A stretch of DNA of 64,000 nucleotides from a virus, in the IMG/VR virus record IMGVR_UViG_3300045988_152944; one strand, 5' to 3'. Below, piece by piece: positions 23,457 through 53,040 of the stretch. The notes under the pieces were generated by a model that saw only the letters and a program-made list of their open reading frames with translations, was not told where the DNA came from and ran no database searches. How positions within the stretch are numbered: position 1 is the first letter of the stretch; each line of letters opens with the position of its first letter. The position numbers and the translations under genes are program-made.

Positions 23457-23770
23457 CCTTTACACCCTCGGTTTCCCGATATTTCTTAGGGGAGTAGATT
23501 ATCTCATCAACTCATTTCCTGTTACCGTAGTGAGCTGCTCAGCGCTTTGAATGTTGGAGTTTCACCAACACCCTACTCTACTTGCTTACTTTCAAACATA
23601 TTTCTTGTTTGATACGCGTTCGATAATCGTTACACTTTCCTTATTAAAGGCTTAGCACGGTGTTCCCTACGCAGGTTCACCGTTAGCAGGATTTCATCCC
23701 ACACCTTGGATTTCCAAGTTCACTGAGTTATCATTCGATTGTCACCAACCGACGGACCCTGTATACGTTA
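23457..23770 (-). other. group I intron (314 nt, no internal ORF), probably td-like subgroup IA
   Basis: The 5' exon ends in U, which can wobble-pair in GACU/GGUC. The last intron nucleotide is G. Paired elements include ACGGUG/CACCGU, CCUU-UAAU-AAGG, GUUGG-N7-CCAAC and UCGG-GAAA-CCGA. Splicing restores the reading frame and the catalytic motif. Confidence 0.7.
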
Positions 23771-25412
23771 AGTCACTATCGGAGTGTCGTAATGTTGAAG
23801 TATCATATATACTGTAAATGATTCCACTCTTAATATATTGATACCAATAGTCCATATCTTCGGACGATACTACTTTACAAGGGTTGTGTTCGTGCGAATC
23901 AATCATCGGGCTTCGGCACAGGTCAACACAACCCACACTTCGCTGCCTCCAGAAATTTGAATACACTTGGTCAGGCCCAATTAACCCCACCGGTTCCAAC
24001 CCAAGCGCCGATTGACACTGTGCCACGGGATCAGAAATCATAAAACTATAATTTCCTCTCACCCATATCTTACCAATCTTCGCCTTGTTTATCGTCTCAG
24101 CAATATTGCGATATATTTTCTTCTGTACATGAGCGTCTTCCAACATTATCGGGTTTTTAATAATAGCCCTCAACGCCGTGCTTTGCGCCCCATTATACAA
24201 TTCTTTAAAACTGACTTGTTCACCCTTGCAACCCAACATATACAACATTGTATACAATTGGTCACCTGAACAAATCTTTTTAATCCAATCAATTGTCGGT
24301 TGAATCAATTCCAGAATATCATCCTTATTGATATCCAACACTTGCAGATATTGATAATTGGCCAGCACATATTCGTCATCGTACTTTTTATTATATCTCG
24401 CAACTCCCCACTGAATACCAGCCGCATCTACATACTTTTGATATTCATACCAAGATACATAATATTTATACATCTTGAATTGAGATTCACTCAATATAAC
24501 GTCAATATCCTCCAACCTATGTGAAATTCCCCACCGGTCACGAATTGAATCAATACCGTGTTCAGCTCCAAACTCTCGAAAATCAAACGGGACCAAACAC
24601 CCCTTCACAAAAACGCTACGAACAACGAACGACGACGGCGTATACGATAAATTCATATCTTCTGCCCACAGTGCCGCAAACTTAGGATCGACCAATCCCT
24701 GTCCATCAGCGCAATTCAACTCGATGTCCATAGTTCTTTCTTTAATCTGCTTCTTCCCGGTCTCAGGATTAGGGCAAATCCAATCCACCTGTTGGTCCTT
24801 CACCACATTAAAGAAATCCTTAACAACACACACTCTCGGCGTCCTCACCCACATAACACTCGAAAACGCCAACGCAAAATACGCATGATATTTCGCCAAA
24901 TTCATTTCTGAAATCTTGGTGTCCAACCCGCACATCAGATTTTTATACAGGGTGTCATAAAGAGCTTCATTAATAAAGGTAATAGTGTTGCGCCTCATTT
25001 GTCCCGAACCACAACAAAACCTCACATAATGAATACCGTTAACGTCAAATCCGTTCTTGGCCAATTCTTTATATTCTTTTTTGGTCACGACTTCAACGTT
25101 AACAATATCTTTAACAAACAACGCATCTGTCAAAAACCGATTAAGAATACCAGCTTCTTTGGTTCGTCCTTCTCTCTTCGCAGCTCTGATAGCGCGACGA
25201 AATTGTTGGACATCGTTAAAAATCTCTCGATGACTTCTGGTATCATTATAATATTTTCTGATTTGTTGAAAAACCAGATTATCACCAATTGATACCAGTG
25301 CCCCATCGCGAGCTGCCTTAGATTTTGAATAATTAACTATATTTAAGTTGTTCTCTACAATAAAACTAGATTTAAGTTTAAAAACTTGATATAGGTTTTG
25401 TAAATTAGGCAC
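23771..25412 (-). CDS. YonO/RdRP-like single-chain RNA polymerase, exon 1
   Basis: GTG start after AAGAGGAAG. Ends ..CRSPMIDSHEHNPCKVV..TLRHSDSD plus the first nucleotide of the Phe codon. Confidence 0.6.
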
Positions 25413-37984: not shown

Positions 37985-38272
37985 ATGACTTTTAAAGAAC
38001 AACTCAAAGTAGCAAACGATAACAATCTCAGCATTCTCGATCTCGAAATCGCCAACGAATGCGACTGCGTATTCGATTTTGACTACACCGATGACGATTT
38101 TGAAGCCCTTTGTGGGGTTATACGAACTGCTTATCTTAAAGCGGAAGCGATGACGATTATAGCACTCGTTCAATGTGTGAGTGATCTTATCACCGATGAA
38201 AATTACACCGTTCAACAAGTGCTTGATGTAACCACTTGGGATCTTGTCGAAAAAGCAAGTTGGTATTGCTAA
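37985..38272 (+). CDS. hypothetical small protein
   Basis: Start moved to 37985, after TAAGGAGG. Confidence 0.55.
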   Translation: MTFKEQLKVANDNNLSILDLEIANECDCVFDFDYTDDDFEALCGVIRTAYLKAEAMTIIALVQCVSDLITDENYTVQQVLDVTTWDLVEKASWYC

Positions 38273-38285
38273 GGAGGTAACAACA

Positions 38286-38882: not shown

Positions 38883-38896
38883 AGGAGGTATAGAAC

Positions 38897-39166
38897 ATGT
38901 ACAGAAACATTTTAGCTGTCATCGATGTCGATGACACAATCAATAATGGTCAAGTGATTGACACATTGGAACAAAAGATGGATGGGGACATCCACATCCA
39001 TCTCGACAGCGCTGTTATTCTTGATGAAGACAGCGACAGTATGCACGAACGCTATCTGCGTTATCTGCAAGACTGGATTATCGATCATTGTGATGACTAT
39101 TTTGAAGGCAGCTCTCCGGCGTGCTTTGAAGAATGGAAAGACAATGAATACGCATACAACAATTAA
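38897..39166 (+). CDS. hypothetical acidic small protein
   Basis: AAAGGAGG upstream. Confidence 0.55.
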   Translation: MYRNILAVIDVDDTINNGQVIDTLEQKMDGDIHIHLDSAVILDEDSDSMHERYLRYLQDWIIDHCDDYFEGSSPACFEEWKDNEYAYNN

Positions 39167-39178
39167 AGGAGGATATAT

Positions 39179-39571
39179 ATGTTTACTGAAAAAACAGCAC
39201 AAGGTTATCAAATCGTTACAATTATTCCCGATGGCAGTCGGGAACACGTCATCGCAAAACGTGAGATGTTTTGGGGTGATGACTACTTCGTCGGCCTCGG
39301 TTACAATCGGGCTGACGGCACTTGGAGTCAAGGGATGTATTCGTGGAGCACAGCCGACGAGGCGCTTCAGGCTTTGATTGAAGAGAAATATTCTTTTACA
39401 AAGAACTCTCTCATCAAGCGTTTATTGCGCTACGTGGAAGCAAATTCCGAGGGCGCGGAACAGTTGTACCAAACCCTCATTGGAGAAATCCAAATGACCG
39501 AAAGCGAAATCGATGATTGGGGATACGGATATTGTATCCCTGAAGAGGAGAATCAAGATGAAAATGATTAA
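39179..39571 (+). CDS. hypothetical protein
   Basis: AAAGGAGG upstream. Confidence 0.6.
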   Translation: MFTEKTAQGYQIVTIIPDGSREHVIAKREMFWGDDYFVGLGYNRADGTWSQGMYSWSTADEALQALIEEKYSFTKNSLIKRLLRYVEANSEGAEQLYQTLIGEIQMTESEIDDWGYGYCIPEEENQDEND

Positions 39572-39983
39572 CATTGTGAAAGAAGGTTTCAATGTTGAGT
39601 GTTATATTGACAGAGATTATAATGTCGATATAAACATCAACAACAACAACGTCACATATTGTGATGGAGAAATCGTAAGCAATAACGCTGAGGTTGAAGG
39701 CGTTACTCCCCAAGAGTGGATTGAAGCTTTTGTGGTCGAGCCACTCGAAACAGCGGAGACACTTGAACAAGTGCTCGACGAGCTTGACCTCCCCTATGTA
39801 ATTGGAGATACGGTTTATGACCTAATTGATGACTACACGGCAAGTGATGCGTATTCGGCAGAAGATGTTGACCTGCTACGGGGGTTGTCACCAGAACGTC
39901 TCCAAGAGATGTTCAGTTGCACTGAAGGCATTGCCTTTATCAAAACAAAAAATCAATATGCTCTTGTATGGGCAGAAAACTAA
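39558..39983 (+). CDS. hypothetical acidic protein
   Basis: Start moved to 39558, after GAAGAGGAG. Overlaps the upstream gene by 14 nt. Confidence 0.5.
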   Translation: MKMINIVKEGFNVECYIDRDYNVDININNNNVTYCDGEIVSNNAEVEGVTPQEWIEAFVVEPLETAETLEQVLDELDLPYVIGDTVYDLIDDYTASDAYSAEDVDLLRGLSPERLQEMFSCTEGIAFIKTKNQYALVWAEN

Positions 39984-39993
39984 GGAGGTTTAT

Positions 39994-40935
39994 ATGAAAC
40001 AAACAATTTTACATCAAAAACTCAAAGCATTTCTCGACGATCGATATGGGTCGTGGGCTTGGGATGAACAATACCAATGCTACTACGACGAACCTTATCG
40101 TTCTTATGATGATATCATTGATGACAAAACCATCGGCTACATTTTAGATTCAAACTATCCTATGGAGGAGTTGGAAGATAAATGCTACGATTGGTGGGAA
40201 GACGCCGCATGGCAGTGTGAGATGGAACTGGTTAAAGAGTTTCAGAAAACTCTCACACGTCAGTCGTGGGATGACGACCAAATCCGTGAAGAACTCGAAT
40301 CAATGTGGTATTTCAAATACCCAATTGATGAGTATCTAAAACAGGAAGTCGATGTCGACATTTGTATTGATACGGGTGACGCCAACTACGATTACACACT
40401 CAACGCGGTATATCCACATTACAATGGCCGTACGGGTGACGTGATCGATGACGACGCCTCATTGGTGTGGTTGGCAAAAACTCAAGGTTACTCAAAAGAA
40501 CAACTTCAACACGCATTCAACACATTTGAGGACAGCCTTGAACGTCACGGTTTCTTAGAAACTGTATACGACGAGGTGCTCAATTGTTCAACGCCAATGC
40601 CAGCACTCGTATTTCCCGTAAAAATGTCTCTTGGCAAGTTAATTGAACTGTATGAAGTTATGCACAAGAGAGACCAAGAAGGATACGAGTGGTATTCCGA
40701 AAACCGTGAAGATTGTGGTTCAATCATCGTCGATAAAAACGTTGATTGTACACTTTACGACTTTTGGGATGGCGGCGGAGGATGCTGGGGAATCGAACTT
40801 GAAAAAGATGTCGAAATCCCTATTAAGTATATCAAAAGTGCCGAACCCGATGGGGCGAAAACATATTCAATGAAATCTTGTTACGGTTGCAACAGCGATT
40901 GTTGGAAAGACGCCGTCAAAGAATACAAATTCTAA
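39994..40935 (+). CDS. hypothetical 313-aa acidic, Trp/Tyr-rich protein
   Basis: Start moved to 39994, after TAAGGAGG. Confidence 0.6.
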   Translation: MKQTILHQKLKAFLDDRYGSWAWDEQYQCYYDEPYRSYDDIIDDKTIGYILDSNYPMEELEDKCYDWWEDAAWQCEMELVKEFQKTLTRQSWDDDQIREELESMWYFKYPIDEYLKQEVDVDICIDTGDANYDYTLNAVYPHYNGRTGDVIDDDASLVWLAKTQGYSKEQLQHAFNTFEDSLERHGFLETVYDEVLNCSTPMPALVFPVKMSLGKLIELYEVMHKRDQEGYEWYSENREDCGSIIVDKNVDCTLYDFWDGGGGCWGIELEKDVEIPIKYIKSAEPDGAKTYSMKSCYGCNSDCWKDAVKEYKF

Positions 40936-40995
40936 ATCAATCACGATGTGCTATCGACGTTACGGGCAAAATAAATAAATAGGAGAATCAAAATT

Positions 40996-41313
40996 ATGGA
41001 AAAGAAATGTGTTTACTTAGTGGTCATCGACTACGCCGATTGCAGTGGTGACAGTGATCAAACAATCAAGGCGTTTGAGCGCCAAGAAGCCGCAAAGGCG
41101 TTGTATGACATTTGCATCAAAGAGACGAAAATGAACGACTATCCCGAATACTTTGATAGAGACGGGAGTTTCAACGAAGACGAGTACGGCGACACCTTTG
41201 CTTGTGACGAATTTATATCACCAGAGGGCGAATCGTTTTCGTTTTATGAAGACGGTTTTTACAAACAAGAACACTACACCGTTTATTGGCGTAAACTTGA
41301 AGTGCTCGAATAA
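40996..41313 (+). CDS. hypothetical acidic protein
   Basis: TAGGAG upstream. Confidence 0.6.
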   Translation: MEKKCVYLVVIDYADCSGDSDQTIKAFERQEAAKALYDICIKETKMNDYPEYFDRDGSFNEDEYGDTFACDEFISPEGESFSFYEDGFYKQEHYTVYWRKLEVLE

Positions 41314-41338
41314 GTGAAACAAAAAGGAGAACACAAAA

Positions 41339-41518
41339 ATGGTTAAAACCTATCAACAACACAAAACAGAAACAAGAGAACAAGCCATCGAATGGCAACG
41401 CGAATTCGAAAATCAAAATTACTCCTGGTCGGAACTCGCTGACTGGGCAGCACATTTTGAGAAACGCGGTAAAAGATACGGACTCTTAAAAGAGTTTAAA
41501 GAAAATGGTATTTGTTAA
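41339..41518 (+). CDS. hypothetical 59-aa protein (below the track cutoff)
   Basis: AAAAGGAG upstream. Begins MVKTYQQHKTETREQAIEWQREFENQ. Confidence 0.5.
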   Translation: MVKTYQQHKTETREQAIEWQREFENQNYSWSELADWAAHFEKRGKRYGLLKEFKENGIC

Positions 41519-41532
41519 GGAGGTGAACAACT

Positions 41533-42045
41533 ATGCCAAATTGGTGTGAAAACACATTATCAATTAAAGGAACAAAAGAACAAATCGTCGACTTCAACAA
41601 AAGATATCTTCCAAACGGAACCTTTTCTTTTGAAAATGTCATTTCCTCTCCACAAACTATAGAGGAATGCCCCGAAGACTATATTCTTCACAACGAAAAA
41701 GAAGCAAACAAACACTGCCTTTTGTGGGACCCAACACAACCCAGAAATTGGTTCAACTGGTATGATTGGAATTGCCATTATTGGGGGTGCAAATGGGACG
41801 CTACGGTAATGAATGTCGAACAAAACGACGAATCTATCAAAATCCTCTTCGACACCCCCTGGAGTCCATCAATCCCCGTTATCGAGAAACTTATCGTAGA
41901 TAACCCGCAACTCGAAATCGAGTGTGAGTATTTCGAACCAGGAATGTGGTTTGCAGGACTAATCACGAAGGAAGGTTGCGAAGAGCTTTCTGATGAAGAG
42001 ATATCGAACATGTATCCAGAATGGTGCGAACCGGTGGAAGAATAA
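41533..42045 (+). CDS. MPNWC-motif protein (Api92/DUF1281-like ferredoxin-fold family, putative), copy 1
   Basis: N-terminus MPNWCENTLSIKGTKEQ; TAAGGAGG upstream. A paralog lies at 57494..58006. Confidence 0.5.
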   Translation: MPNWCENTLSIKGTKEQIVDFNKRYLPNGTFSFENVISSPQTIEECPEDYILHNEKEANKHCLLWDPTQPRNWFNWYDWNCHYWGCKWDATVMNVEQNDESIKILFDTPWSPSIPVIEKLIVDNPQLEIECEYFEPGMWFAGLITKEGCEELSDEEISNMYPEWCEPVEE

Positions 42046-42057
42046 AGGAGGTATAAT

Positions 42058-42732
42058 ATGAATAAACAAATGCAAACGAAACAATTGAGCCAGTGGCTTA
42101 AAGAAAGCGTCGATTGGGTAATCGACCATCAAGAAGGTTGTTGTACTTTTACCTTGGATGACCACCTCGCCGTGTGCGTTGGTTGGTCGGGAGGTTACAC
42201 AGATGAACCCGATGAAGGTTTGATTCAAGCAATCGATGATTTGACGTTCGCCGTCAACGTCGCCCTTAAAGTCTGGACTTCAGATAGTATGAGAACCGAT
42301 CTTGACTACATCAACGCCCCGTATTACCCAAACGGAGATGTAGCCGATATCGCAGTATCAATTTCTGAAGATGAAGATTATGATAAGTTGGCCGAGTACT
42401 TCCTTAAAGAGTATGAAGGTTTTAAATCTGTCGTAATTTCAGATAATGGTGAAATCACCGAAAACCCCAATCTTGATTATGAGATTGAAGGACGTTATTT
42501 CACCTGGTATGAAATCGACCGTACCAATGTAGGTAAAGATACGTATGTATTGTTTGAATCTTGTGAATACGGCGATGAAGCCGGCGCCATTCTGGTCCAA
42601 CTTCCAAATACACCGTTGGAAATCAAGAGATTATCCACCGGCGAACTCGTGTATGTCATTCCAGAAGACTGCGAAATTGCAGAAACCTTCGATGATCTCA
42701 TCACCGCTTTAGAGGATAACGATATCTTATAA
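42058..42732 (+). CDS. hypothetical acidic protein
   Basis: AAAGGAGG upstream. Confidence 0.6.
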   Translation: MNKQMQTKQLSQWLKESVDWVIDHQEGCCTFTLDDHLAVCVGWSGGYTDEPDEGLIQAIDDLTFAVNVALKVWTSDSMRTDLDYINAPYYPNGDVADIAVSISEDEDYDKLAEYFLKEYEGFKSVVISDNGEITENPNLDYEIEGRYFTWYEIDRTNVGKDTYVLFESCEYGDEAGAILVQLPNTPLEIKRLSTGELVYVIPEDCEIAETFDDLITALEDNDIL

Positions 42733-42785
42733 TCACAACCACCTTGGGACACTTTCCTGTTTAGAAAGCCGAAAAAGGAAATTTT

Positions 42786-43010
42786 ATGAAAACTTTTTAC
42801 ATTTCGGTCACTGAGACCTTGAACAGAATCATTGAAGTTCACGCAGAGGACAAAGATGAAGCAATTCAAAAAGTGAGCGATGCTTACTACGATGGACAAG
42901 TCGTCCTTGACTCGGAGGATTACGTGGATGTCGATTTCAACGACGAAACGGAAGAAACAATCAACAATTACGAACTCGGCGGAATGCCAAAATTCTACGA
43001 AGTGCAATAA
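42786..43010 (+). CDS. hypothetical small protein
   Basis: AAAGGAA upstream. Confidence 0.5.
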   Translation: MKTFYISVTETLNRIIEVHAEDKDEAIQKVSDAYYDGQVVLDSEDYVDVDFNDETEETINNYELGGMPKFYEVQ

Positions 43011-43022
43011 GGAGGCGTCTAA

Positions 43023-43247
43023 ATGATAAAACGATTAGGACGAACCATTTGTGTCAAATGCAGCGAAATAGTATGGGACACAGACGGCGACAAAAAATTA
43101 GCAAGAACCTTACCTCAAAGTTGTGATATCAACATCGAGGATTACGAAGATGGCGATGATTTGGATGATGAAATCGCCGACGCTCTTTCCGATTTAACCG
43201 GATTCTGCGTAGAAGGATTCAATTACACAATTAAAAATAATAAATAA
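43023..43247 (+). CDS. hypothetical small acidic protein
   Basis: TAAGGAGG upstream. Confidence 0.55.
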   Translation: MIKRLGRTICVKCSEIVWDTDGDKKLARTLPQSCDINIEDYEDGDDLDDEIADALSDLTGFCVEGFNYTIKNNK

Positions 43248-43264
43248 AAAGGAGATAACAAATT

Positions 43265-43675
43265 ATGAAATTTAATTCTATTTACAAAAATGGCAAACCC
43301 GATTACTTCTTCATCACAATCGACAGCAAAAAAGGTGAACGCGCGTTCATCCAACCCTACTTTATCGTCACCGACATCGATCACCCGCGTCGTGGTCGTA
43401 TCAAAGAGATGAACGTTCTCGTGAATACAAACGGTGTAATCGTCTATTACGGCAAAGCGACGCACGGTTACGGGTATTCACACTCGGCTGATGTCTACGG
43501 TGAACTCATCGACATTATTAGGGATTCCTACGGGAAAGAGCTGACAGATGCCGAAGAGAAAGAGCTTCGCAAAATCAACACTCACGATGATGAATTGACG
43601 TTGTCGCCCGAATTGCTTGAACATCTCGCGGAACTTAACAACGTTGCTCTTTATGGAAAATTCAACAATCTTTAA
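43265..43675 (+). CDS. hypothetical protein
   Basis: AAAGGAG upstream. Confidence 0.6.
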   Translation: MKFNSIYKNGKPDYFFITIDSKKGERAFIQPYFIVTDIDHPRRGRIKEMNVLVNTNGVIVYYGKATHGYGYSHSADVYGELIDIIRDSYGKELTDAEEKELRKINTHDDELTLSPELLEHLAELNNVALYGKFNNL

Positions 43676-43685
43676 CATTATTACT

Positions 43686-43723
43686 CACAGGCGCTTGACA
43701 AACTCAGGCGCCTGTGATATAAT
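43686..43723 (+). promoter_or_regulatory. internal promoter TTGACA-N17-TATAAT embedded in a 9-bp hairpin
   Basis: -35 at 43695..43700 lies in the loop. The stem is CACAGGCGC (43686..43694) with GCGCCTGTG (43708..43716). -10 at 43718..43723. Confidence 0.6.
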
Positions 43724-43737
43724 TAGGAGGTATTACT

Positions 43738-43983
43738 ATGGCACTTAGAACAATAAATGGATTAGCAATTTGCAACAAAGATGATTATGAGCAATTCTTT
43801 AACTTGCGCACAAACAACGGGATGAAAAACCCGTTTTCTGAGGAAAAAATCAAGAAAATCATCGAAGACTGGGATGATCTTGTATTAGCCAATGATGACC
43901 TGTGGGCCATTTATTGGGATATGTTGCGACAAGCAATTCAAGACAATTCAGAAGAAATCAATGCACAATGTGCAAATATTTAG
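43738..43983 (+). CDS. hypothetical small protein
   Basis: TAGGAGG upstream. Confidence 0.55.
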   Translation: MALRTINGLAICNKDDYEQFFNLRTNNGMKNPFSEEKIKKIIEDWDDLVLANDDLWAIYWDMLRQAIQDNSEEINAQCANI

Positions 43984-43993
43984 GAGGTGTTTT

Positions 43994-44308
43994 ATGGAAC
44001 TGACCAACTACAAAACTTACAAAAAAGAAATGGAACGCATCGGCTACGACGCAGATATGACGCTCGACATGATCGAGCGTTGGGCGTCTGAATGCGACGG
44101 AAGTTATGGCTCACGCGATATTCACTATTGCGACCATTATCACCACGATTTCGCATTCGACTTGGTACGGCCGGCGTATTGGGAAATTTGCGACGAAGCC
44201 ACAGATCGTAGAATTTGCGTTGACAAATGTACGAATTGTGGCGATTTGAAGCCTGGCACTTATATAGGGGATGTGGTAATTGAACCTATATACAGATTTA
44301 GAAAATAA
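43994..44308 (+). CDS. hypothetical Cys/His-rich protein
   Basis: Start moved to 43994, after TAGGAGG. Confidence 0.55.
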   Translation: MELTNYKTYKKEMERIGYDADMTLDMIERWASECDGSYGSRDIHYCDHYHHDFAFDLVRPAYWEICDEATDRRICVDKCTNCGDLKPGTYIGDVVIEPIYRFRK

Positions 44309-44321
44309 TAGGAGGTGGCAC

Positions 44322-44525
44322 ATGTTTAAAGACTATAGTTTTTATGTCAAATGCAACGACAATCCTTTAATATTGGTTAAAGTTGTTGCAGACAATTATG
44401 ACGAAGCTATAAAGTTTGCAAAAAGCTCATATGCTTCGGAATGCTCAATCTACGCCGACGATCGTGCAAATGATTGGCATATCGCTCCGCAATATTGCTA
44501 TTGTATTAATAGGAGGTCTATATGA
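44322..44525 (+). CDS. hypothetical small protein
   Basis: Start moved to 44322, after TAGGAGG. Confidence 0.55.
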   Translation: MFKDYSFYVKCNDNPLILVKVVADNYDEAIKFAKSSYASECSIYADDRANDWHIAPQYCYCINRRSI

Positions 44526-44752
44526 ACACAACAATTCAAACAGAAGCAGTGGAGGTTTGTCCCTTCTGCGAACAAGAAAACGTTTATCCCAATTGGGATG
44601 TCAGCAAGCAAGGCTACGTCGCCCAATGTCAGCATTGTGGTAAATTGATTATGCTTTGCGACGAATGTATGCGCGATGAGGATTCGTGCATTACTTGCAA
44701 CTGGACAAAGGAGCACAATTGCTTCAGAGCTCCAGACTTATATCGTGATTAA
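44522..44752 (+). CDS. zinc-ribbon mini-protein
   Basis: CPFCEQ..CQHCG..CDEC..CITC; TAGGAGG upstream. Confidence 0.55.
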   Translation: MNTTIQTEAVEVCPFCEQENVYPNWDVSKQGYVAQCQHCGKLIMLCDECMRDEDSCITCNWTKEHNCFRAPDLYRD

Positions 44753-44766
44753 TAGGAGGTGTCACA

Positions 44767-45159
44767 ATGAATGACAAACAATTAGAGGCCGCAAGGTCAC
44801 AACTTAGCAATGAAATCGCAGCCATTGGCTACGGTTGGATCAACGGGAAATATCGTAATCCCCCTAAGAAATATCGCCTGCGTGAAAAAGAATTCGATTG
44901 CATCGATATGATTAACTCTCTGTTGTGTTATAGTTATAGCGGCTACTCAGACGATGCGGCTTGGATTCTTCACGACGAACTTAACAGTTATCATTCGTAT
45001 CTTGCATCGTATGTAGATACACTTGGAGAAAAACGAGTAATCGAGTTGATTCAAGGACAGATTGATGATATTGAACGAGTGGGCTACTCGGTATATACCG
45101 ACAGTGAAGGGTGTACATATAACACCCTTATTTGGGAAAACGCGGAGGTAGCGAAATGA
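44767..45159 (+). CDS. hypothetical protein
   Basis: TAGGAGG upstream. Confidence 0.6.
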   Translation: MNDKQLEAARSQLSNEIAAIGYGWINGKYRNPPKKYRLREKEFDCIDMINSLLCYSYSGYSDDAAWILHDELNSYHSYLASYVDTLGEKRVIELIQGQIDDIERVGYSVYTDSEGCTYNTLIWENAEVAK

Positions 45160-45341
45160 CAATTAAAGCACAAGAACTACTGCAAGAATTATATGACGAT
45201 ACGTCGTTTGCCATTGACAGCGATACGGGTAACGCCGATGTAAATAAAGCATTAAAAACAATCGAAAATAACATTAACGAACTATTTAAGATGGCACTTT
45301 TAGAAAAGGCAAAAAAATATAACATAAAAATCAGGAGGTAA
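45156..45341 (+). CDS. hypothetical small protein
   Basis: Start moved to 45156, after GCGGAGG. Confidence 0.5.
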   Translation: MTIKAQELLQELYDDTSFAIDSDTGNADVNKALKTIENNINELFKMALLEKAKKYNIKIRR

Positions 45342-45346
45342 TAAAA

Positions 45347-45697
45347 ATGTGGGTAGAAATTGATAATGAAAAAGCATTAGATATTCTTATGGATAGGGTA
45401 GCGTATTGGACAGACGATATGGAAGTACAGGAGTTGTACAATAAAATGTATGATAATATGGTTTTCGGCGGAGTTTTTGACCACGGCGAGTTCGACGTGA
45501 ACGCTATTGTTGATAACGATTATATTAACTATACAAAAGTTGTAAGCAAGGGCGATGACGAATACGACGAACTTTTGAAAGTTTATAAGGACAACGACTG
45601 CTGCTGCGGCGATGTGTCTTGCAATACGACAATTTGTGATTATATTGAAGCGGTTGACAACGAAGAAGAGCCGACAATGTTTCTTATCAGAATGTAA
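45347..45697 (+). CDS. hypothetical acidic protein
   Basis: CAGGAGG upstream. Confidence 0.6.
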   Translation: MWVEIDNEKALDILMDRVAYWTDDMEVQELYNKMYDNMVFGGVFDHGEFDVNAIVDNDYINYTKVVSKGDDEYDELLKVYKDNDCCCGDVSCNTTICDYIEAVDNEEEPTMFLIRM

Positions 45698-45717
45698 TAA
45701 AACGGAGGTAACTAATT

Positions 45718-46095
45718 ATGGGAAAAGCAGTAGCAATTAGTACATACGATATTGATCAAATCCGTAACATTATCAACGGCTTCAGTTACGACACTCTTGT
45801 TGAGTGTTGCTCACAATTAGACGGCGACGCAGCCGTCTATCCTATGGATGACTTCGACGAAGTAATGGACTATCTTAAACCTTGGGACCTGGCTCGAGCA
45901 GTGTATTATGGGGAGTTTGAACCTATACACAGTTATTTCCGAGTTAACGTCTATGGAAATCTCGAATCATCCAACGCCCCTATCGAAGATGGGTGGATAG
46001 ACATTGACGAACTTGCTATATATGCCGTCGATTACAATGAAGACTTCGGTGATAATGAAATTTGTTCACTCCTCGACCAATGGGAAAAGGAATAA
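45718..46095 (+). CDS. hypothetical acidic protein
   Basis: ACGGAGG upstream. Confidence 0.6.
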   Translation: MGKAVAISTYDIDQIRNIINGFSYDTLVECCSQLDGDAAVYPMDDFDEVMDYLKPWDLARAVYYGEFEPIHSYFRVNVYGNLESSNAPIEDGWIDIDELAIYAVDYNEDFGDNEICSLLDQWEKE

Positions 46096-46144
46096 AAAAA
46101 TAATGAAGAGGTGGCTGAATAAGCCGCCTCGAAGGAGATAAAAA

Positions 46145-46645
46145 ATGAAAATTTATAGTGAACAAAGTTTGGCAGATTTTAAATTTTGGAGTGGTGCAGA
46201 AACCACCGCTCAACGCATTTGGGAAGAGCAAGGATCAGAAGGCTTTGACCAACTTGAAGCGATTTTGGAAGATTTATATCCCGACGGAATCGACGAAACA
46301 GACTTGAATGACTTGCTTTGGTTCGATGCCGACACCGTTTACGAATGGTTGGGAATCGAGGATGAAGAAGACGAAGATGAAGACGACGAAGACACCGACG
46401 ATGACGGTGAAGAAGACGAGGAAGACGACGAGGAAGAGGAAACTGAACCCGCCAGCGATTATGTTATTAACGTAGGTGACAGTTGGGATGATCTGGCACC
46501 ACATGACGCGTTTGCGACAAAAGAAGTTGCAATATCAATGGCAAAAGCAATGTCAAAAGCGCAGCACGACAAATGTGTAGAAGTCGTCTATAGTCCGTGT
46601 GACGATGTCGACACTAATGAAATTATTTGGCGTAATCAAAATTAA
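46145..46645 (+). CDS. hypothetical protein with a roughly 40-aa poly-Asp/Glu tract
   Basis: GAAGGAG upstream; contains EDEEDEDEDDEDTDDDGEEDEEDDEEEE. Confidence 0.6.
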   Translation: MKIYSEQSLADFKFWSGAETTAQRIWEEQGSEGFDQLEAILEDLYPDGIDETDLNDLLWFDADTVYEWLGIEDEEDEDEDDEDTDDDGEEDEEDDEEEETEPASDYVINVGDSWDDLAPHDAFATKEVAISMAKAMSKAQHDKCVEVVYSPCDDVDTNEIIWRNQN

Positions 46646-46659
46646 TATAGGAGGCTTAT

Positions 46660-46920
46660 ATGCAAATCACTAATCAAGAATACAACTTTTTAATGCAATT
46701 ATCACACGACACCAAAACCGATTGCTGGTTTAACCTCACACAAGATGAGAAAGGGCGCGACGTCGTCGAAGACCTTGAAACCGGCGATATACTCGATTTG
46801 GCCGAGGGCATCGATCTTTTGTTTGATGCTGTAAACGACGATATCATTCGTGCTTTCACTCCTGAAGAATCCGAGTTGTTTGCGTCGCTTGAACAAAAAA
46901 TTATGCACGAATATTTATGA
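46660..46920 (+). CDS. hypothetical acidic small protein
   Basis: TAGGAGG upstream. Confidence 0.55.
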   Translation: MQITNQEYNFLMQLSHDTKTDCWFNLTQDEKGRDVVEDLETGDILDLAEGIDLLFDAVNDDIIRAFTPEESELFASLEQKIMHEYL

Positions 46921-46934
46921 GGAGATAACCGAAT

Positions 46935-47363
46935 ATGGAATTCATGAAACAAAATGTAGCAAAACTCAATCAACAAGCAATCGACAACCTCGACGATTTG
47001 ATGGAAAGTGTAACAAGTTATGTGCTCCGCCACTGGGACGAATATGACGATCTGAAGCAGATCCCCCTCGAGGTGCTCGAACACGGTTGCGTAAGTGGAA
47101 TCGTCAGTGGGCTCGTCTGGTATTCCGACACGACTGCTTATTACGCAAAAAACAAAGACGAGATTAATAAGCTTCTTTATGAAAAGATGGACGAATGGGG
47201 GGTATATAGCCTCAACGAAATATTCTCTCGCGATCCGAGCTGGGACGAAGAAGACCCGCTGGCCCTTTATGACTACAATCAGAACCTTCTCGCTTGGTTC
47301 GGCTTCGAAGAAACAATGCGTAACTTTGCACGAGAATTTGAAGAATTCGAAGAACTTATTTAA
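46935..47363 (+). CDS. hypothetical acidic protein
   Basis: GAGGAG upstream. Confidence 0.6.
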   Translation: MEFMKQNVAKLNQQAIDNLDDLMESVTSYVLRHWDEYDDLKQIPLEVLEHGCVSGIVSGLVWYSDTTAYYAKNKDEINKLLYEKMDEWGVYSLNEIFSRDPSWDEEDPLALYDYNQNLLAWFGFEETMRNFAREFEEFEELI

Positions 47364-49436: not shown

Positions 49437-49465
49437 CTTTGTAAGTCCTTTTTTAGTTTATTTTA

Positions 49466-49483
49466 ATATGTGTCGCCACATAT
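49466..49483. repeat. palindrome ATATGTG-TCGC-CACATAT
   Basis: Read directly; 30 nt upstream of the 49436 start codon. Confidence 0.85.
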
Positions 49484-49500
49484 CGTGTTTCTTCTATTCA

Positions 49501-49520
49501 GGAACCCCTATAGGGGTTCC
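49501..49520. repeat. perfect 20-bp palindrome GGAACCCCTATAGGGGTTCC
   Basis: Read directly. Confidence 0.95.
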
Positions 49521-49521
49521 T

Positions 49522-49593
49522 TGTATTACATGTATTACATATGACATATTGTATTACAGTATTACATGTAGTACAGTACTACAGTGTAGTACA
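49522..49593. repeat. array of 9-bp quasi-palindromes TGTA(T/G)TACA (5 full and 2 partial copies)
   Basis: Full copies at 49522, 49531, 49550, 49567 and 49585. Confidence 0.9.
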
Positions 49594-49606
49594 TATATGT
49601 TATATG

Positions 49607-49636
49607 GTCATATCAACTCTTTAGAGTTGATATGAC
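49607..49636. repeat. palindrome with 14-bp arms, GTCATATCAACTCT-TT-AGAGTTGATATGAC
   Basis: Read directly. Confidence 0.9.
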
Positions 49637-49704
49637 ATATGAAATATGAAATATTTGTTTTATGATATATTGAAATACTGATATACTGACATATGACATA
49701 TAAT

Positions 49705-49772
49705 CACGTGCACGCGCATGCACATACACACGCATATACGCACGCCCGCACGCGCATGTATACATATGTGCA
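49705..49772. repeat. alternating pyrimidine-purine tract (41 + 26 nt), Z-DNA-prone
   Basis: cacgtgcacgcgcatgcacatacacacgcatatacgcacgc, then cc, then cgcacgcgcatgtatacatatgtgca. Confidence 0.9.
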
Positions 49773-49847
49773 GAGTCTGGCTGTAAATACAACCACGTCA
49801 AAACCGGCGGCGGACATCTCCCCGTCGCCTTTGGTTTGCCCGCCGCC

Positions 49848-50222
49848 TTAAAACGGCAGTTCTTCGTAGTCCTCTGAGGATTCGGGCGTAACCTCGTCCG
49901 CCGCCACTTCAACAGAGTCGTCGTTGTTGGTTTCGTCTACCGGTCCACTACGTTGCTTAACCACGGTGAACGAAAACTTATTAGGTTCACCGGTTCCAGC
50001 GCCATTCAGGACGAGGTAGACATACCCGCCCCTTTGAAGATTGTGTTCGGCGTAAGTCGCTTGCCTACCCATGGCGACAACTTCGATGCTGCACCATTTG
50101 CCGAAATCTTTACCAGTGCAGACAGTATAGGCCGCCGTCTTTACTTTGTTACCGCGAGCCAATTGCTTTTCGCCGATGGTGATATTGGTGATGATTTTCC
50201 CGAATACGGTCGTCTCAATCAT
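49848..50222 (-). CDS. ssb: single-stranded DNA-binding protein (short OB-fold type)
   Basis: Acidic C-terminal tail ending DYEELPF, matching the SSB D-D-D-I/L-P-F tip. The body is about 100 aa and OB-sized. CAGGAGGG upstream. Confidence 0.6.
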   Translation of the reverse strand: MIETTVFGKIITNITIGEKQLARGNKVKTAAYTVCTGKDFGKWCSIEVVAMGRQATYAEHNLQRGGYVYLVLNGAGTGEPNKFSFTVVKQRSGPVDETNNDDSVEVAADEVTPESSEDYEELPF

Positions 50223-50266
50223 TAGATTATCCCTCCTGTGGGGTGTTATTATTGTGCGGGGCTTTT

Positions 50267-50635
50267 TTACTTGGCCGCCGCCGCCGCTTTTTGTGCTGCC
50301 CTCATTGCTTTCATGCGTTCTGAGTTTGCGATACGTTGCTCTTCGGTCATAGTGCGGGTCACGCGGACACTTCTTAATGACAAAAATTCCTTAGGTGCCT
50401 CAACCTCATACGCCACCGGCTGCCCATCATAAGTGGATATCGAGCGCAGGATATATTCTTCAGGACTCTTTGTCATTAATCCCCTGAGTTTGGTGACTAT
50501 TGTGTTGTCACTGGTCCAGATGGTCATCTTGTCGCCGTTGCGTTCAAAAACGATCGAAGTCTCTTGTTCGTCCAAAGGGTTATTCGGGAAAGCGACCAAA
50601 TCGTCAACCGTGTACGTCTTTTTTTGTTTAACCAT
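50267..50635 (-). CDS. hypothetical protein
   Basis: Promoter at 50670..50710; GGAGG upstream. Confidence 0.6.
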   Translation of the reverse strand: MVKQKKTYTVDDLVAFPNNPLDEQETSIVFERNGDKMTIWTSDNTIVTKLRGLMTKSPEEYILRSISTYDGQPVAYEVEAPKEFLSLRSVRVTRTMTEEQRIANSERMKAMRAAQKAAAAAK

Positions 50636-50669
50636 AAGCTAAACCTCCATTATTCTTTTTTATACTTCT

Positions 50670-50710
50670 ATTATACCACACGGCGGCGGGTATGTCAACA
50701 CAGGGTGACA
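50670..50710 (-). promoter_or_regulatory. promoter TGTCA-N7-TTGACA-N17-TATAAT
   Basis: -10 at 50670..50675, -35 at 50693..50698. Confidence 0.7.
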
Positions 50711-50734
50711 AATACTTCTAACTTGTCGTATAAT
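50705..50734 (+). promoter_or_regulatory. divergent promoter GTGACA-N18-TATAAT
   Basis: Its -35 is the reverse complement of the TGTCAC element of the 50670 promoter. Confidence 0.45.
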
Positions 50735-50740
50735 GAAGAC

Positions 50741-50801
50741 ACCTTATTCCACAAACGAAAATACCTCGGTCGATAAATCTGTCGACCAAACTCTTTTCTT
50801 T
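50741..50801 (+). ncRNA. candidate ~60-nt small RNA
   Basis: Lies between the plus-strand promoter at 50705..50734 and the hairpin GGTCGA-N8-TCGACC (50768..50787), which is followed by aaaCTCTTTTCTTTT. No ORF present. Confidence 0.35.
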
Positions 50802-50884
50802 TACTACAGAGCTTAAATAAGCTCAAGAAAAACCAAAAAAGGGTATCTCAGACCATTTTCCCCCATCACGCGTCCGCCTACACA

Positions 50885-50912
50885 CAAAAAATACCCAGGC
50901 TGCTATGCCTGG
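50885..50912 (-). terminator. intrinsic terminator after gene 50922..51350
   Basis: CCAGGC-N6-GCCTGG followed by T6 on the minus strand. Confidence 0.65.
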
Positions 50913-50921
50913 ATATCTTTC

Positions 50922-51350
50922 TTACTCTTCATCGTCCCATTCGTCGTCTTCTTCGTCCGCCAGCATAATCTGGCACTCGGGGCAGATCTTGTTGTACATC
51001 GCCACCCATCCTTTCGGATTTCTCCATACCGTCCTGGTGGTCACGTCACACCAATGAGCGATGATGCCGACGACGGACTTGATCGCCTGGGGACGATCGT
51101 ACTCGAATTTGAAGCACGGGCACTCACGAATGTTGTACTCCTCACCCAACGCCCCCTGATGCGTCTCATACTTGCTCCCTTCCACCGGGATGCCAGTCTT
51201 GAACTTCGAGCAGGAATGTTCTTTATTGTCGCGGGCGTTCATGCAAGACCAGCACAAGGTGTCTGTCTTCAGATTGTTGAAGAAGATTCTGGCGTTGATG
51301 GCTTCGACTTCCGACTTGGTTAATTTGGTTGCTTTAATGACTCTGTTCAT
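50922..51350 (-). CDS. Cys-rich protein with an acidic tail (142 aa)
   Basis: CWSC..C..CPC..CPEC, C-terminal DEEDDEWDDEE; AGGAGA upstream. Confidence 0.6.
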   Translation of the reverse strand: MNRVIKATKLTKSEVEAINARIFFNNLKTDTLCWSCMNARDNKEHSCSKFKTGIPVEGSKYETHQGALGEEYNIRECPCFKFEYDRPQAIKSVVGIIAHWCDVTTRTVWRNPKGWVAMYNKICPECQIMLADEEDDEWDDEE

Positions 51351-51371
51351 ATCACCGTCTCCTAATCTTTT

Positions 51372-51409
51372 TATACTTTAAGTATAACATAGGTTCGACA
51401 GTTTGTCAA
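51372..51409 (-). promoter_or_regulatory. promoter TTGACA-N17-TATACT with an overlapping palindrome TATACT-TTA-AGTATA
   Basis: -10 at 51381..51386, -35 at 51404..51409, palindrome at 51372..51386. Confidence 0.65.
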
Positions 51410-51746
51410 CATATTTTTAGAAAAAAAAATAAATATTTTTCAAGAAAAAAATAGTGCAAAATTTTCCTATTCAATAGTGTAAAAATTTACCATCGGCGGC
51501 GGACATCTTTTTATGCGGCTGCGCCCGTTTTTTACCCGTTAGCACTGGTTTAGAAAACTGAACATATCGCTACCAAAACCGTCCTGGCGGAGCTGCATTT
51601 TTATAAAAAAACAGGGTATTTTGGGATATTTGTGAAGAAAATTGTAACACGATGTCGACGGCTGATGACGGTCGATGATGACGTAATGTACCATAAACGG
51701 TACATAACTTTAGACAAAAATGACACCGTCCGCCGCCTGAAGTAGG

Positions 51747-51784
51747 ACAAAATATTCCTATTATAGAACAAAATATTCCTATTA
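51747..51784. repeat. direct repeat ACAAAATATTCCTATTA x2 (21-bp period)
   Basis: Copies at 51747..51763 and 51768..51784. Confidence 0.9.
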
Positions 51785-51819
51785 AAATGACAAAAAATTA
51801 CCATCGATTTTGCGGCGAG

Positions 51820-51848
51820 TTGTCCACTTTTCCACATAGTTATCCACA
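51820..51848 (+). promoter_or_regulatory. DnaA-box cluster: TTGTCCACT, TTTTCCACA and a perfect TTATCCACA
   Basis: At 51820..51828, 51828..51836 and 51840..51848, all on the same strand. Confidence 0.55.
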
Positions 51849-52038
51849 TCAAAAGTCACGTTTTCGATGCCTTTCGTTACCAAAATTGTATGGTTTTTTT
51901 AACGAGCGATGACGACGGATGATGCCAAAAGTATCAGTATACTGACACTATGTTTCGTAGAGTAATGTTTATTATAAGCGACAAATAACCCTTTAATGTC
52001 ACTTATAATTGACATTATAATGATACTGTAAGGTACTA

Positions 52039-52062
52039 AAATGACCCTATAAATGACCCTAT
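52039..52062. repeat. tandem 12-mer AAATGACCCTAT x2 (plus a degenerate third copy)
   Basis: Read directly. Confidence 0.9.
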
Positions 52063-52154
52063 AAAGTGCCAAAATGTCCCCCTTTGATGGCGTAAATGAC
52101 GCTGAAAACGATCAAATTCCTGCGGTTTCTCTGTAAAGTTAGTACCCATTTTTG

Positions 52155-52209
52155 CTTGTGCAAAACTTGCACTCTTGTGTGCAAACTCGACTTTTTGTGT
52201 GCAAACTCG
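52155..52209. repeat. three iterons, (C/T)TTGTG(TG)CAAA(A)CT(T/C)G, at about 20-bp spacing
   Basis: Copies at 52155..52169, 52174..52189 and 52194..52209. Confidence 0.85.
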
Positions 52210-52359
52210 CGTTACAAAGGAATCAAATAGGGTGTTGGTTTACGCCAAAAAAGGCACAAAATCGGATGCCTACAGCTGTTCACGTCCGCCGCCTACGTGT
52301 ACCAACGTCTATCGCCTACGTGCAAATAAAGCATAAAAAATGAGCCAAATTGGTGCAGG

Positions 52360-52409
52360 TTTTACACTTTTCCAGACGATATTGGGGTGGTTTTTACACA
52401 TTTTCCACC
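52360..52409 (+). repeat. direct repeat TTTTACAC(A)TTTTCCA x2, containing DnaA-box-like 9-mers
   Basis: TTTTACACA at 52392..52400 fits TTWTNCACA. Three further 9-mers have one mismatch each. Confidence 0.6.
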
Positions 52410-52491
52410 CCTTTAATTCCGTCGAATTCGACCAGTTTAACCGCCTCGATTTCGACACGGTGGCCCAAAGTGGTCAGCCGTCCCTATTTTA

Positions 52492-52518
52492 ATAAAAAAA
52501 AGAGGCATCTCAGCCTCT
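52492..52518 (-). terminator. intrinsic terminator after the CYTH gene
   Basis: AGAGGC-N6-GCCTCT followed by T8 on the minus strand. Confidence 0.7.
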
Positions 52519-52557
52519 CTCTCGCGCACGCATGTATATATACTATATATAATACGC

Positions 52558-53040
52558 TCACTTTTTCAGCGCGTTTTTAGCGATCCACTTCGGTATTTCC
52601 ACGAGCGTGTCTCTTGCACATTCGATTTCGACGACGGCTTCGTCTGATGTCGCTCGAAGGTCGACAACGAAGTAGATGTTCGGGTTTTCTTTCGTCAAGA
52701 TGCGGAATCGAACCTTTTCGTCGAGCGCTGTGTTCGGATAAAGACTACGAACGCTGGCGAATTCGGCCGGTAGAATGGGCCGTTCAAACTCGATTTGGTT
52801 GTCTTTATCAAGTTTGTACTTGGTGCACGCTGTGTATGTGCAGGCGCCGCTGCTGTCAACGAGTTCGCGAATACGACTACGAGCGATGCCATCGTTATAC
52901 GTCCACAGTTGACGGATGATGTATCGGGTAACGACTGTGAATGGTTTGTATGGGCTCGTTAGAAGGTTGACGAAGACCGACTTCGGAAGATGATATCGGA
53001 GTTCGTGTTCGAGTTCGTACGATGATGAGTTAGTTGTCAT
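52558..53040 (-). CDS. CYTH / triphosphate-tunnel metalloenzyme family protein
   Basis: Ordered CYTH-like strand motifs: YELEHELRY (ExExK-type), SRIRE, TKYK, IEFERPI, EKVRFRI and FVVDL..AVVEIE. Confidence 0.6.
   Translation of the reverse strand: MTTNSSSYELEHELRYHLPKSVFVNLLTSPYKPFTVVTRYIIRQLWTYNDGIARSRIRELVDSSGACTYTACTKYKLDKDNQIEFERPILPAEFASVRSLYPNTALDEKVRFRILTKENPNIYFVVDLRATSDEAVVEIECARDTLVEIPKWIAKNALKK

Follow-up and report, generated by a model that had tools for sequence, protein, structure and literature searches.

The subject of this analysis is a gene-free region in a 64,000-nucleotide stretch of viral DNA, IMG/VR record IMGVR_UViG_3300045988_152944, which we call the window and by which we mean the whole stretch at its full length. 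The region, referred to here as the gap, lies in a minus-strand block of early genes, most of which have their own promoter and terminator, and is flanked by gA (52558..53040, minus strand) and gB (50922..51350, minus strand). An initial annotation made from the sequence alone placed a candidate replication origin or DnaA sink at 51381-52557; the true span free of open reading frames (ORFs) runs from the gB start to the gA stop, 51351..52557, and is the largest non-coding stretch of the window. We show that this locus is non-coding, syntenic, under purifying selection and helically phased, and that it has no internal consensus promoters. Its sequence indicates a helically phased protein-binding platform on double-stranded DNA, and its most likely single role, which we put forward tentatively, is that of an origin driven by phage factors.

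The source phage, with a genome of ~135-140 kb, is known solely from human-gut metagenomes, and the relatives that we compared are IMG/VR and ENA contigs of 111-141 kb from such metagenomes. In ~20 distinct relatives from independent human-gut metagenomes the order gA, ORF-free gap (0.5-1.6 kb), gB is kept; the locus is frequent in such metagenomes, with the gB cluster alone recorded on 440 contigs. The initial statement that the region holds no gene was borne out, in that ORFs in the gap are no longer than 83 aa and none is conserved in these ~20 relatives. In the best-conserved of them, of 67 codons, 13 changes are synonymous and 28 non-synonymous, with every codon position affected, and two relatives have lost the ATG start; this ORF is common to close relatives because their DNA is similar. 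With zero conserved ORFs, and with neutral substitutions and a lost start codon in the 67-codon ORF, a degraded gene is ruled out.

Conservation of the gap is instead that of a nucleic acid. Among close relatives, the left 140 nt of the gap are 91-98% identical, compared with 78-83% at third codon positions of gA, and colinear islands survive in lineages where gA is at 43% identity. These islands comprise box 1, TGGAAAATGTGTAAAAA, with box 2, TGGAAAAGTGT, 32-33 bp downstream; TGCACCAAAYTGRCTCAT...ATTATTTGCAC; a GGCA...TGCC hairpin; the dyad ATGT(A/C)CC-N6-GGTACAT; GGCGGCGG motifs; and an A/T block upstream of the gB -35 element. Since these islands persist and the left 140 nt exceed third-position identity, we consider the locus to be under selection as nucleic acid. 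Around the islands, the gaps of close relatives differ by gain or loss of whole modules of 20-130 bp, with breakpoints at short direct repeats, e.g., GGCGGCGG(A/T)CGT and ATCGA. A functionless spacer, i.e., a recombination junction of mosaic modules with slippage duplications and cassette remnants, would account for indels that stop at such repeats, for 21- and 23-bp units that vary in copy number, for the recombinant L007 lineage, whose breakpoint falls within the gap (gA 86%, gB 50%), and for the 3-10% of the gap that can be aligned between distant groups. Against it stand the conservation of the left part beyond synonymous sites, the islands that outlast the protein, and the retention of 1 kb over ~20 independent assemblies, which phage genomes rarely allow for junk; slippage, moreover, has no reason to prefer 11-bp multiples in every lineage. 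We regard this explanation as improbable.

The spacing of repeats in the gap demonstrates this preference. Identical 9-mers within 40 nt number 27, compared with 0.30 +/- 0.72 in 300 dinucleotide-preserving shuffles, and the gap tile ranks first of the 210 window tiles for such nearby repeats. The autocorrelation of 4-mers in the gap peaks at lags 9-13, 20-24, 31-34 and 43-45 alone, with z up to 9.5, and is ~0 between them; in 12 of 12 lineages tested, the on-phase lags have a mean z of 2.3-9.5 and the off-phase lags a mean of ~0. This ~11-bp comb survives masking of the obvious repeat families, and was found neither in 25 control tiles nor in two other non-coding regions of the window. On- and off-phase lags were picked after the first autocorrelation result, and for this reason three lineages fetched later with a DNA pattern (L064, L070 and L072), in which the comb recurs, serve as an independent check. 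Phased A-tract arrays occur among these three (AAAATCGC four times at 10 bp, TTAACCCC three times, and GACG(T)AGAAAA at 11 bp), and longer arrays at 10-11 bp are present in L007, L064 and L070. The gap also holds five loop-less palindromes, e.g., GTCGAATTCGAC, where 0.75 are expected and none of 300 shuffles reaches that number; those of relatives include AACACGATTCGTGTT and TGCATAATTATGCA. A period of about 11 bp matches one helical turn of duplex DNA, and sites on the same face of the helix are a mark of cooperative protein binding and bending. The phasing, together with the loop-less palindromes, therefore points to a protein-binding platform on duplex DNA rather than to an RNA gene or slippage junk.

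At least 10 families of sites, namely short direct repeats, dyads and palindromes without a loop, are combined in the element as a mosaic. They are placed at integer multiples of ~11 bp and therefore face the same side of the helix. Its features, from the gA side to the gB side, are as follows.

52518..52557, minus strand: alternating purine/pyrimidine tract TATATATAGTATATATACATGCGTGCGCG directly past the gA stop codon; a similar tract lies at ~49720-49790.
52494..52517, minus strand: intrinsic terminator of gA, GAGGCTGAGATGCCTC followed by T8; upstream edge of the element, conserved in group 1 lineages.
52384..52411, minus strand: inverted repeat or hairpin GGGGTGG-[AAAATGTGTAAAAA]-CCACCCC, with box 1 TGGAAAATGTGTAAAAA in its loop.
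52360..52374, minus strand: box 2 TGGAAAAGTGTAAAA, 32-33 bp (three helical turns) past box 1.
52320..52357, minus strand: island TGCACCAATTTGGCTCAT-N-TTATTTGCAC, a single unit from a degenerate family that repeats in tandem every ~33 bp.
52283..52322, minus strand: two copies of CACGTAGGCG(G/A)(C/T)(G/A)GACG at 23-bp spacing, one of which carries a GGCGGCGGAC motif.
52246..52271, minus strand: terminator-like hairpin GGCA-N10-TGCC with a T6 run behind it; weak in both L001 and L016.
52157..52209, minus strand: three copies of (G/A)GTTTGCACA at a spacing of ~20 bp; carried by the window, L001, L016 and L019, whereas L002-L006 have a deletion here.
52039..52082, minus strand: three to four half-sites GGG(T/A)CATTT at 12-bp spacing.
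51963..52020, no strand assigned: inverted repeats including TTATAAT-TGAC-ATTATAA (52003-52020); a lineage-specific insert.
51820..51848, plus strand: DnaA-box trio TTGTCCACT / TTTTCCACA / (3 bp) / TTATCCACA; an accessory module.
51747..51784, plus strand: 21-bp tandem duplication of ACAAAATATTCCTATTA (51747, 51768), with a third, degenerate copy at 51456-51470.
51686..51705, no strand assigned: perfect 20-bp dyad ATGTACC-N6-GGTACAT.
51495..51737, minus strand: inverted pair GGCGGCGGAC (51737..51728) ... GTCCGCCGCC (51504..51495), enclosing 223 nt.
51411..51453, no strand assigned: A/T block; two repeats of 22 bp, ATATTTTT-N-AAAAAAATA, abutting the gB -35 element on its upstream side.
51381..51409, minus strand: sigma-70-type promoter of gB, TTGACA-17-TATACT, TG-extended, 11 of 12 matches; downstream edge of the element.

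Every motif listed in the initial annotation was recovered at its coordinates: TTGTCCACT at 51820, TTTTCCACA at 51828, TTATCCACA at 51840, TTTTACACA at 52392, AAATGACCCTAT at 52039 and 52051, TGTGTGCAAACTCG at 52176 and 52196, CGCCTACGTG at 52290 and 52313, and TTACCATCG at 51487 and 51798. Many of these elements vary between lineages in copy number or form. The gA terminator is replaced in group 2 lineages by a different one, CCCCGACGAAAGGGG with T6, at the same place. The 23-bp-spaced repeat at 52283..52322 differs in copy number among relatives, and indels stop at these repeats, while L001 has a single copy of the 21-bp ACAAAATATTCCTATTA unit. The half-site GGG(T/A)CATTT is half of a palindrome, ATGTCCC-N6-GGGACAT, found in L007 and group 2; dyads homologous to that at 51686..51705, ATGT(C/A)CC-N6-GGTACAT, occur as two in tandem with a 19-bp period in group 2 and as five in L007. 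A module related to the insert at 51963..52020, (A)GTATCATTATAATGATA, is present in L002, L026 and L033. The pairing of box 1 and box 2 at 32-33 bp is found in every lineage, and twice in L033, and the island at 52320..52357 retains ~85% identity over 49 nt to lineages with gA identity of 43-66%. At the other edge, no lineage scanned has a strong consensus promoter in its gap other than that of gB, and the A/T block lies at a matching position in all lineages, preceded by a GGCGGCGG/CCGCCGCC motif.

The hairpins among these features raise the alternative that they are the working parts of one or several non-coding RNAs. Transcription would then run along the minus strand, as read-through past the gA terminator, or start at a promoter that departs from the consensus. 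Box 1 is conserved across lineages with wholly different flanking arms (GTTAGG/CCTAAC in group 2, AAGGGC/GCCCTT in L033), so that it stands between three unrelated arm pairs in all. The group 2 homologue of the GGCA hairpin, GGCAT-TA-CCGA-CCA-TCGG-ATTTT-ATGCC, tolerates changes of CCGA to TCGA or TTGA that keep G-U pairs on the minus strand alone, and the hairpin at 52271..52246 is terminator-like. In addition, the 266-nt segment that GGCGGCGGAC/GTCCGCCGCC closes is more stably folded on the minus strand than its shuffles (z = -2.5). The opposite strand, however, folds better still (z = -3.5), and we rejected the long-range GGCGGCGGAC/GTCCGCCGCC stem as the closing helix of an RNA, given that folding is not strand-specific; no covariation is visible for this stem because the close relatives are too similar. 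The stems themselves are not consistently kept: L072 has an uncompensated mismatch in the box 1 stem, a second box 1 copy in L007 has no 3' arm, and a predicted CCGCC/GGCGG stem in L033 is broken. A consensus promoter upstream is absent, the group 2 hairpin abuts the terminator T-run, and searches of Rfam 15, with its families of large phage RNAs, gave zero matches at the gathering threshold in any lineage, with noise alone at E up to 10. As the ~11-bp phasing and the loop-less palindromes are properties of duplex DNA, we think it unlikely that RNA is the product for which this locus is maintained. Two narrower RNA candidates were also rejected. An array or remnants of tRNA genes was considered because an RNA ligase and a kinase sit 2-4 kb from the gap; no tRNA gene was found in the gap of any lineage, and the tRNA cluster lies ~15 kb upstream. 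Repeats of a ToxI-like antitoxin were rejected in view of ~33-bp units that are too degenerate and the absence of a toxin-like gene.

The initial annotation had given the DnaA boxes a central place, with host DnaA recruited to the locus. Relaxed boxes (TTWTNCACA) are indeed enriched in the 1.2-kb gap, with 4 found and ~0.2 expected from the window-wide rate (15 in the whole window, compared with 9.8 +/- 3.1). Within the cluster at 51820-51848, TTATCCACA and TTTTCCACA have at most one mismatch to the TTATCCACA consensus and TTGTCCACT has two. A trio or quartet of boxes with at most one mismatch occurs in the window, L001, L002/L020, L004/L022, L005, L006 and L024, with four such boxes each in L001, L004 and L006; about half of the group 1 lineages carry the trio. 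The close relatives L003, L023, L016 and L019 do not have it, nor do L007, L008, L009 and L026-L033 (group 2 included); a scan of L064, L070 and L072 with the relaxed pattern only showed no DnaA-box cluster. The sole relaxed box that recurs widely is TGTGTAAAA, and box 1 itself contains one, TTTTACACA. No trinucleotide DnaA-trio repeats or unwinding element were found beside the boxes, where the flanks GATTTTGCGGCGAG and TCAAAAGTCACGTTTTCG hold no trinucleotide array, and the A/T block is ~370 bp away. Host DnaA as the organiser of the locus is therefore not upheld, the trio being dispensable and lacking in a number of close relatives as well as in the distant lineages covered; by its distribution, the trio is an accessory plug-in module.

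The same distribution bears on the proposal of a DnaA sink, a datA-like decoy that would titrate host DnaA and shut off host initiation. Three to four boxes (at most one mismatch) that all point one way, are separated by 0-3 bp and fit within ~45 bp would favour cooperative binding, and only ~0.004 such trios are expected in the window by a rough estimate from 33 boxes per 64 kb. The E. coli datA locus and the DnaA-box clusters of Bacillus likewise have a tight cluster of consensus or near-consensus boxes outside the origin; unlike those, the box cluster here is lineage-specific and a small part of the locus, ~30 of 1200 bp. A decoy is conceivable in trio-bearing lineages. It cannot explain the conserved locus, because the trio is missing from so many lineages, and as an account of the gap we consider it very unlikely.

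The proteins encoded beside the gap vary together with it in a mosaic pattern. Identity to the window ranges over 42-95% for gA, 50-98% for gB, 39-100% for a 122-aa protein and 27-100% for a protein resembling single-stranded DNA-binding protein (SSB), while the RNA ligase stays at 94-97%. For gA, gB and the 122-aa protein there was no Pfam, NCBIfam or PDB match, and their PHROG matches, if any, are to families of unknown function. An AlphaFold2 model of gB has a pLDDT (per-residue model confidence) of 63, with residues 80-130 alone confident, as a three-helix unit; this model gave zero PDB fold or sequence matches. The C-terminal three-helix unit and four Cys pairs suggest that gB may be a DNA binder with a zinc ribbon and a helix-turn-helix. 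The gene behaves as a mobile small gene, since it is tandem-duplicated in L007 (8034-8877) and relocated in L032. The N-terminus of gA, YELEHELRY, recalls the ExExK of CYTH/triphosphate-tunnel enzymes and has no Pfam, NCBIfam or PDB support. The SSB gene of the initial annotation (49848..50222) is plausible, with a C-terminal DYEELPF tail; its match to PF00436 is sub-threshold (E 0.05; 1.9e-4 in an orthologue), and its structural model, with a pLDDT of 41, is too low for use. A partition centromere was rejected, as the neighbours that were scanned include no ParA, ParM or TubZ-like NTPase.

The wider genome shows that this phage brings replication proteins of its own. Upstream of the position of the right edge of the window, on the same strand, relatives carry NrdD/NrdG, a tRNA cluster, a Dam-type methylase and ClpP, and further a RecD2-like helicase, an IscB-like nuclease, a split DNA polymerase III alpha subunit (PolIII alpha) and ThyX; PolIII alpha and the RecD2-like helicase lie ~20-30 kb upstream of the locus, with NrdD nearer. 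The initial statement that no polymerase, primase or helicase is recognisable was thus an artefact of the window, and its premise that a lack of replisome genes implies use of the host replisome fails because the phage has its own PolIII alpha and RecD2-like helicase. The regions L034 4435-5708 and 5991-8897 and L035 2029-5995 hold 4-5 tRNA genes (Gln, Trp, Leu, Pro), an anaerobic ribonucleotide reductase, which has faint or weak precomputed intein and LAGLIDADG matches, and the PolIII alpha, divided into two ORFs.

An ORF at 23742..25412 (minus strand, 556 aa) encodes a YonO-like single-subunit RNA polymerase with 27-36% identity to homologues in SPbeta, Clostridium phage c-st, Enterocloster phages and a human-faecal phage, and it is on account of this polymerase that we group the phage with SPbeta-like phages. 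A host of Bacillota type is suggested by perfect TTGACA-17-TATAAT promoters in the window and by strong Shine-Dalgarno sites. No cultured close relative was found in a similarity search, and a host and prophage search with gA and the RNA ligase across 185,579 species genomes returned zero relatives. When the gap itself was compared with phage and plasmid records, a single 61-nt A/T-rich match was obtained and nothing else.

One repeat family extends beyond the gap. The window has 15 occurrences of the motif GGCGGCGG(A/G)(C/A), where 0.57 are expected, and 9 of them fall within 49.8-52.3 kb. The spacer of a perfect promoter at 50698..50670, TTGACAtacCCGCCGCCgtgtggTATAAT, is occupied by it, and it forms a hairpin past the SSB-like gene. 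In distant lineages it is found at ~1 per 600 bp across the early block, bracketing promoters and just 5' of ribosome-binding sites (e.g., L033 6455-6540). The form GGCGGCGG(G/A)(A/C) is often present as inverted pairs (window 49806-52293; L008, L030 and L033 throughout), and L008 has 21 copies in 12.5 kb. In SPbeta, the repeated element SPBRE is the operator of the master repressor MrpR and is bound by it at ~10 early promoters (PMC10516654). Compared by description, the likeness lies in a related phage lineage (the YonO-like polymerase) and in a short motif recurrent at early promoters, and by this analogy the GGCGGCGG family is a candidate SPBRE-like operator system. The difference is that the GGCGGCGG family alone behaves so, and that SPBRE sites are single promoter operators rather than a ~1-kb promoter-less region.

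These observations, together with a precedent from phage T5, argue for a non-replicative role, in which the gap would be an architectural or regulatory element of the early region, i.e., a phased scaffold for transcription, silencing, looping (as with SPBRE/MrpR) or DNA entry (as with the T5 injection-stop signal, iss). Repeat Region 3 of T5 is a 1.2-kb untranslated region with the injection-stop signal and is not an origin, the origins of T5 being mid-genome (bioRxiv 10.1101/866236). Like the gap, it is a ~1.2-kb ORF-free region in the early part of a genome of >100 kb, it is dense in direct and inverted repeats and palindromes, it has DnaA boxes that include pairs spaced by 3 bp (as are TTTTCCACA and TTATCCACA), and it is conserved beyond its neighbouring ORFs, with bending and helical-turn spacing noted. 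In T5, however, eight boxes are kept in nearly all relatives, inside 131-bp inverted repeats within the terminal repeat, whereas here the trio is dispensable, no comparable long inverted repeat is present (in the gap, 23 nt at 74% is the longest), and the two regions share no similar sequence. A regulatory region is as a rule short and has promoters within it, while this locus is 0.5-1.4 kb with no strong consensus promoter on either strand, and every repeat family except GGCGGCGG is confined to the gap within the 64 kb. No MrpR-like or integrase-like (Phage_integrase-type) protein was found among the ~30 window proteins scanned. A T5-like terminal location was looked for, and no fixed genome end was shown nearby: contigs break at scattered points, in a hypervariable repeat ~1.6 kb away. 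We view an early-region element of this kind as a possible explanation, if not a probable one, and as the nearest competitor of the origin.

Several traits of the gap are origin-like. It is the largest non-coding tract, lacks internal promoters, brings together sites of many kinds, is probably bent, has an A/T block by a strong promoter, shows phased A-tracts in relatives and DnaA boxes in some, and belongs to a mosaic module that includes the SSB-like gene. Iteron origins (lambda ori, P1 oriR and those of class-A theta plasmids) and the ORF-free, repeat-rich origins of Gram-positive phages are the comparison set. With iteron origins the gap shares repeat phasing at about two turns, an A/T-rich flank, optional DnaA boxes, an adjacent strong promoter and mosaic, co-varying small neighbour genes. 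Several findings weigh against this reading. There is no recognisable initiator, helicase loader or primase beside the locus, and the PolIII alpha and helicase genes are ~20-30 kb off. Repeat families have 2-3 copies rather than the 4 or more of a classical iteron array, and there are more than 10 of them. Whole modules turn over between close relatives, and gB of L032 (5001-5423) lies in a different plus-strand module with no adjacent gap. The A/T block of the initial annotation, here 51411-51453, adjoins the gB -35 element upstream, i.e., it sits in the UP-element position of the gB promoter. A GC-skew check showed no inflection at 51-52.5 kb, with the cumulative minimum near 28 kb and a local maximum near 50 kb; skew is weak evidence here because it follows transcription direction in this genome. 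The T5 precedent, finally, shows that a region of this kind can have a non-replicative role. Of the origin originally proposed, what stands is a cis-acting, non-coding DNA locus of an origin-like kind; an origin driven by DnaA is unsupported.

Taking the phasing, the palindromes and the conservation together, we hold that proteins almost certainly assemble on the element, and infer that DNA-binding proteins of the phage polymerise or co-assemble there into a higher-order, probably bent, nucleoprotein complex. Candidates for this assembly are those neighbours that vary with the gap (gA, gB, the 122-aa protein and the SSB-like protein), and host DnaA may join the complex in some lineages through the add-on box trio. 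Such a complex could be an origin-type assembly site for the phage's own PolIII-alpha-based replication, with the A/T block beside the strong gB promoter as an easily melted flank; the promoter-proximal ~100 bp would double as gB promoter, UP element and GC-motif operator. A phage-factor-driven origin is, tentatively, the role we favour among the single roles considered. Its extension to the clade is a further possibility, about which we are more doubtful: the gap would be the origin of the whole uncultured SPbeta-like gut clade, made of many 2-3-copy sites in ~11-bp register that are read by small lineage-specific proteins without a known fold (gA, gB or the 122-aa protein), with the DnaA trio as an exchangeable plug-in.

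The PeSL cassettes of T4-type phages are promoter-early stem-loops that mediate modular shuffling and flank small ORFs. The gap resembles them in its repeated GC-rich motifs by early sigma-70 promoters, where indels and module exchanges end, and differs from them in that here a long, ORF-free, helically phased region is itself conserved. Candidate sites of smaller size were also rejected: Spo0A boxes (TGTCGAA) show no enrichment (14, compared with 13 expected), and candidate promoters for sigma-54 or another alternative sigma factor, like a reading of the TGTGTAAAA box as an extended -10, proved inconsistent between lineages when judged by eye.

Other regions of the window attracted attention in the course of this work. 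No description of a replication origin was found in the SPbeta literature that we consulted. The genome opening (pac) point of SPbeta lies between yonR and yonP, adjoining yonO, and for this reason 26535-27124, a divergent and very A/T-rich intergenic region upstream of the YonO-like operon and near the cumulative GC-skew minimum, may be the pac region; as the same synteny points away from the gap, a pac site there was rejected. Three relaxed DnaA boxes (26881, 26946 and 27255) are in or just beyond 26535-27124. A second non-coding region, 49437-49847, is located just downstream of the SSB-like gene; in it, purines and pyrimidines alternate along CATGCGCGTGCGGGCGTGCGTATATGCGTGTGTATGTGCATGCGCGTGCACGTG, after which come short tandem repeats rich in A/T. 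Its homologue is hypervariable, and no fewer than 10 independent metagenome contigs terminate there at scattered positions (L003, L005, L006, L016, L019, L021-L023, L026 and L029). Assembly may break at this site, or the locus may be hypervariable or mark a genome end; it is a rival candidate for origin or terminus. At 669-881 on the minus strand a HEARO RNA (133 bits) marks an IscB/IS605-type element; the adjoining region, ~901-2700, is the second most repeat-dense tile of the window, with 24 nearby 9-mer repeats, and one 139-kb contig appears, by coordinate arithmetic, to start at about window position 728, inside the HEARO element. An IscB-like protein with RRXRR and HNH domains lies among the replication genes of a relative (L035 6354-7637). 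A twister-sister ribozyme (64 bits, E 3e-12) is found at 32595-32674 on the plus strand, between small plus-strand genes. The plus-strand genes of 27363-47363 encode a DNA methyltransferase, an HNH endonuclease and PcfJ-like, DpnD/PcfM-like and LPD18-domain proteins, and recall the anti-restriction or "leading-region" genes of conjugative plasmids.

For annotation made from sequence alone, these results serve as a caution, in that the presence of DnaA boxes and repeats where ORFs are lacking is not enough to call an origin. The large untranslated repeat regions of big phages are rarely understood, and that of T5 has been under debate for decades and still is. Here, the relatives provide a natural series of module gains and losses, including those of the DnaA trio, which would permit a direct test of which sites matter. 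If the gap is an architectural element of the T5 or SPBRE type, it would extend that biology to phages of Gram-positive-type hosts; if it is an origin, it would provide an entry point for engineering an uncultured phage clade and for assigning hosts to it on the basis of replication.

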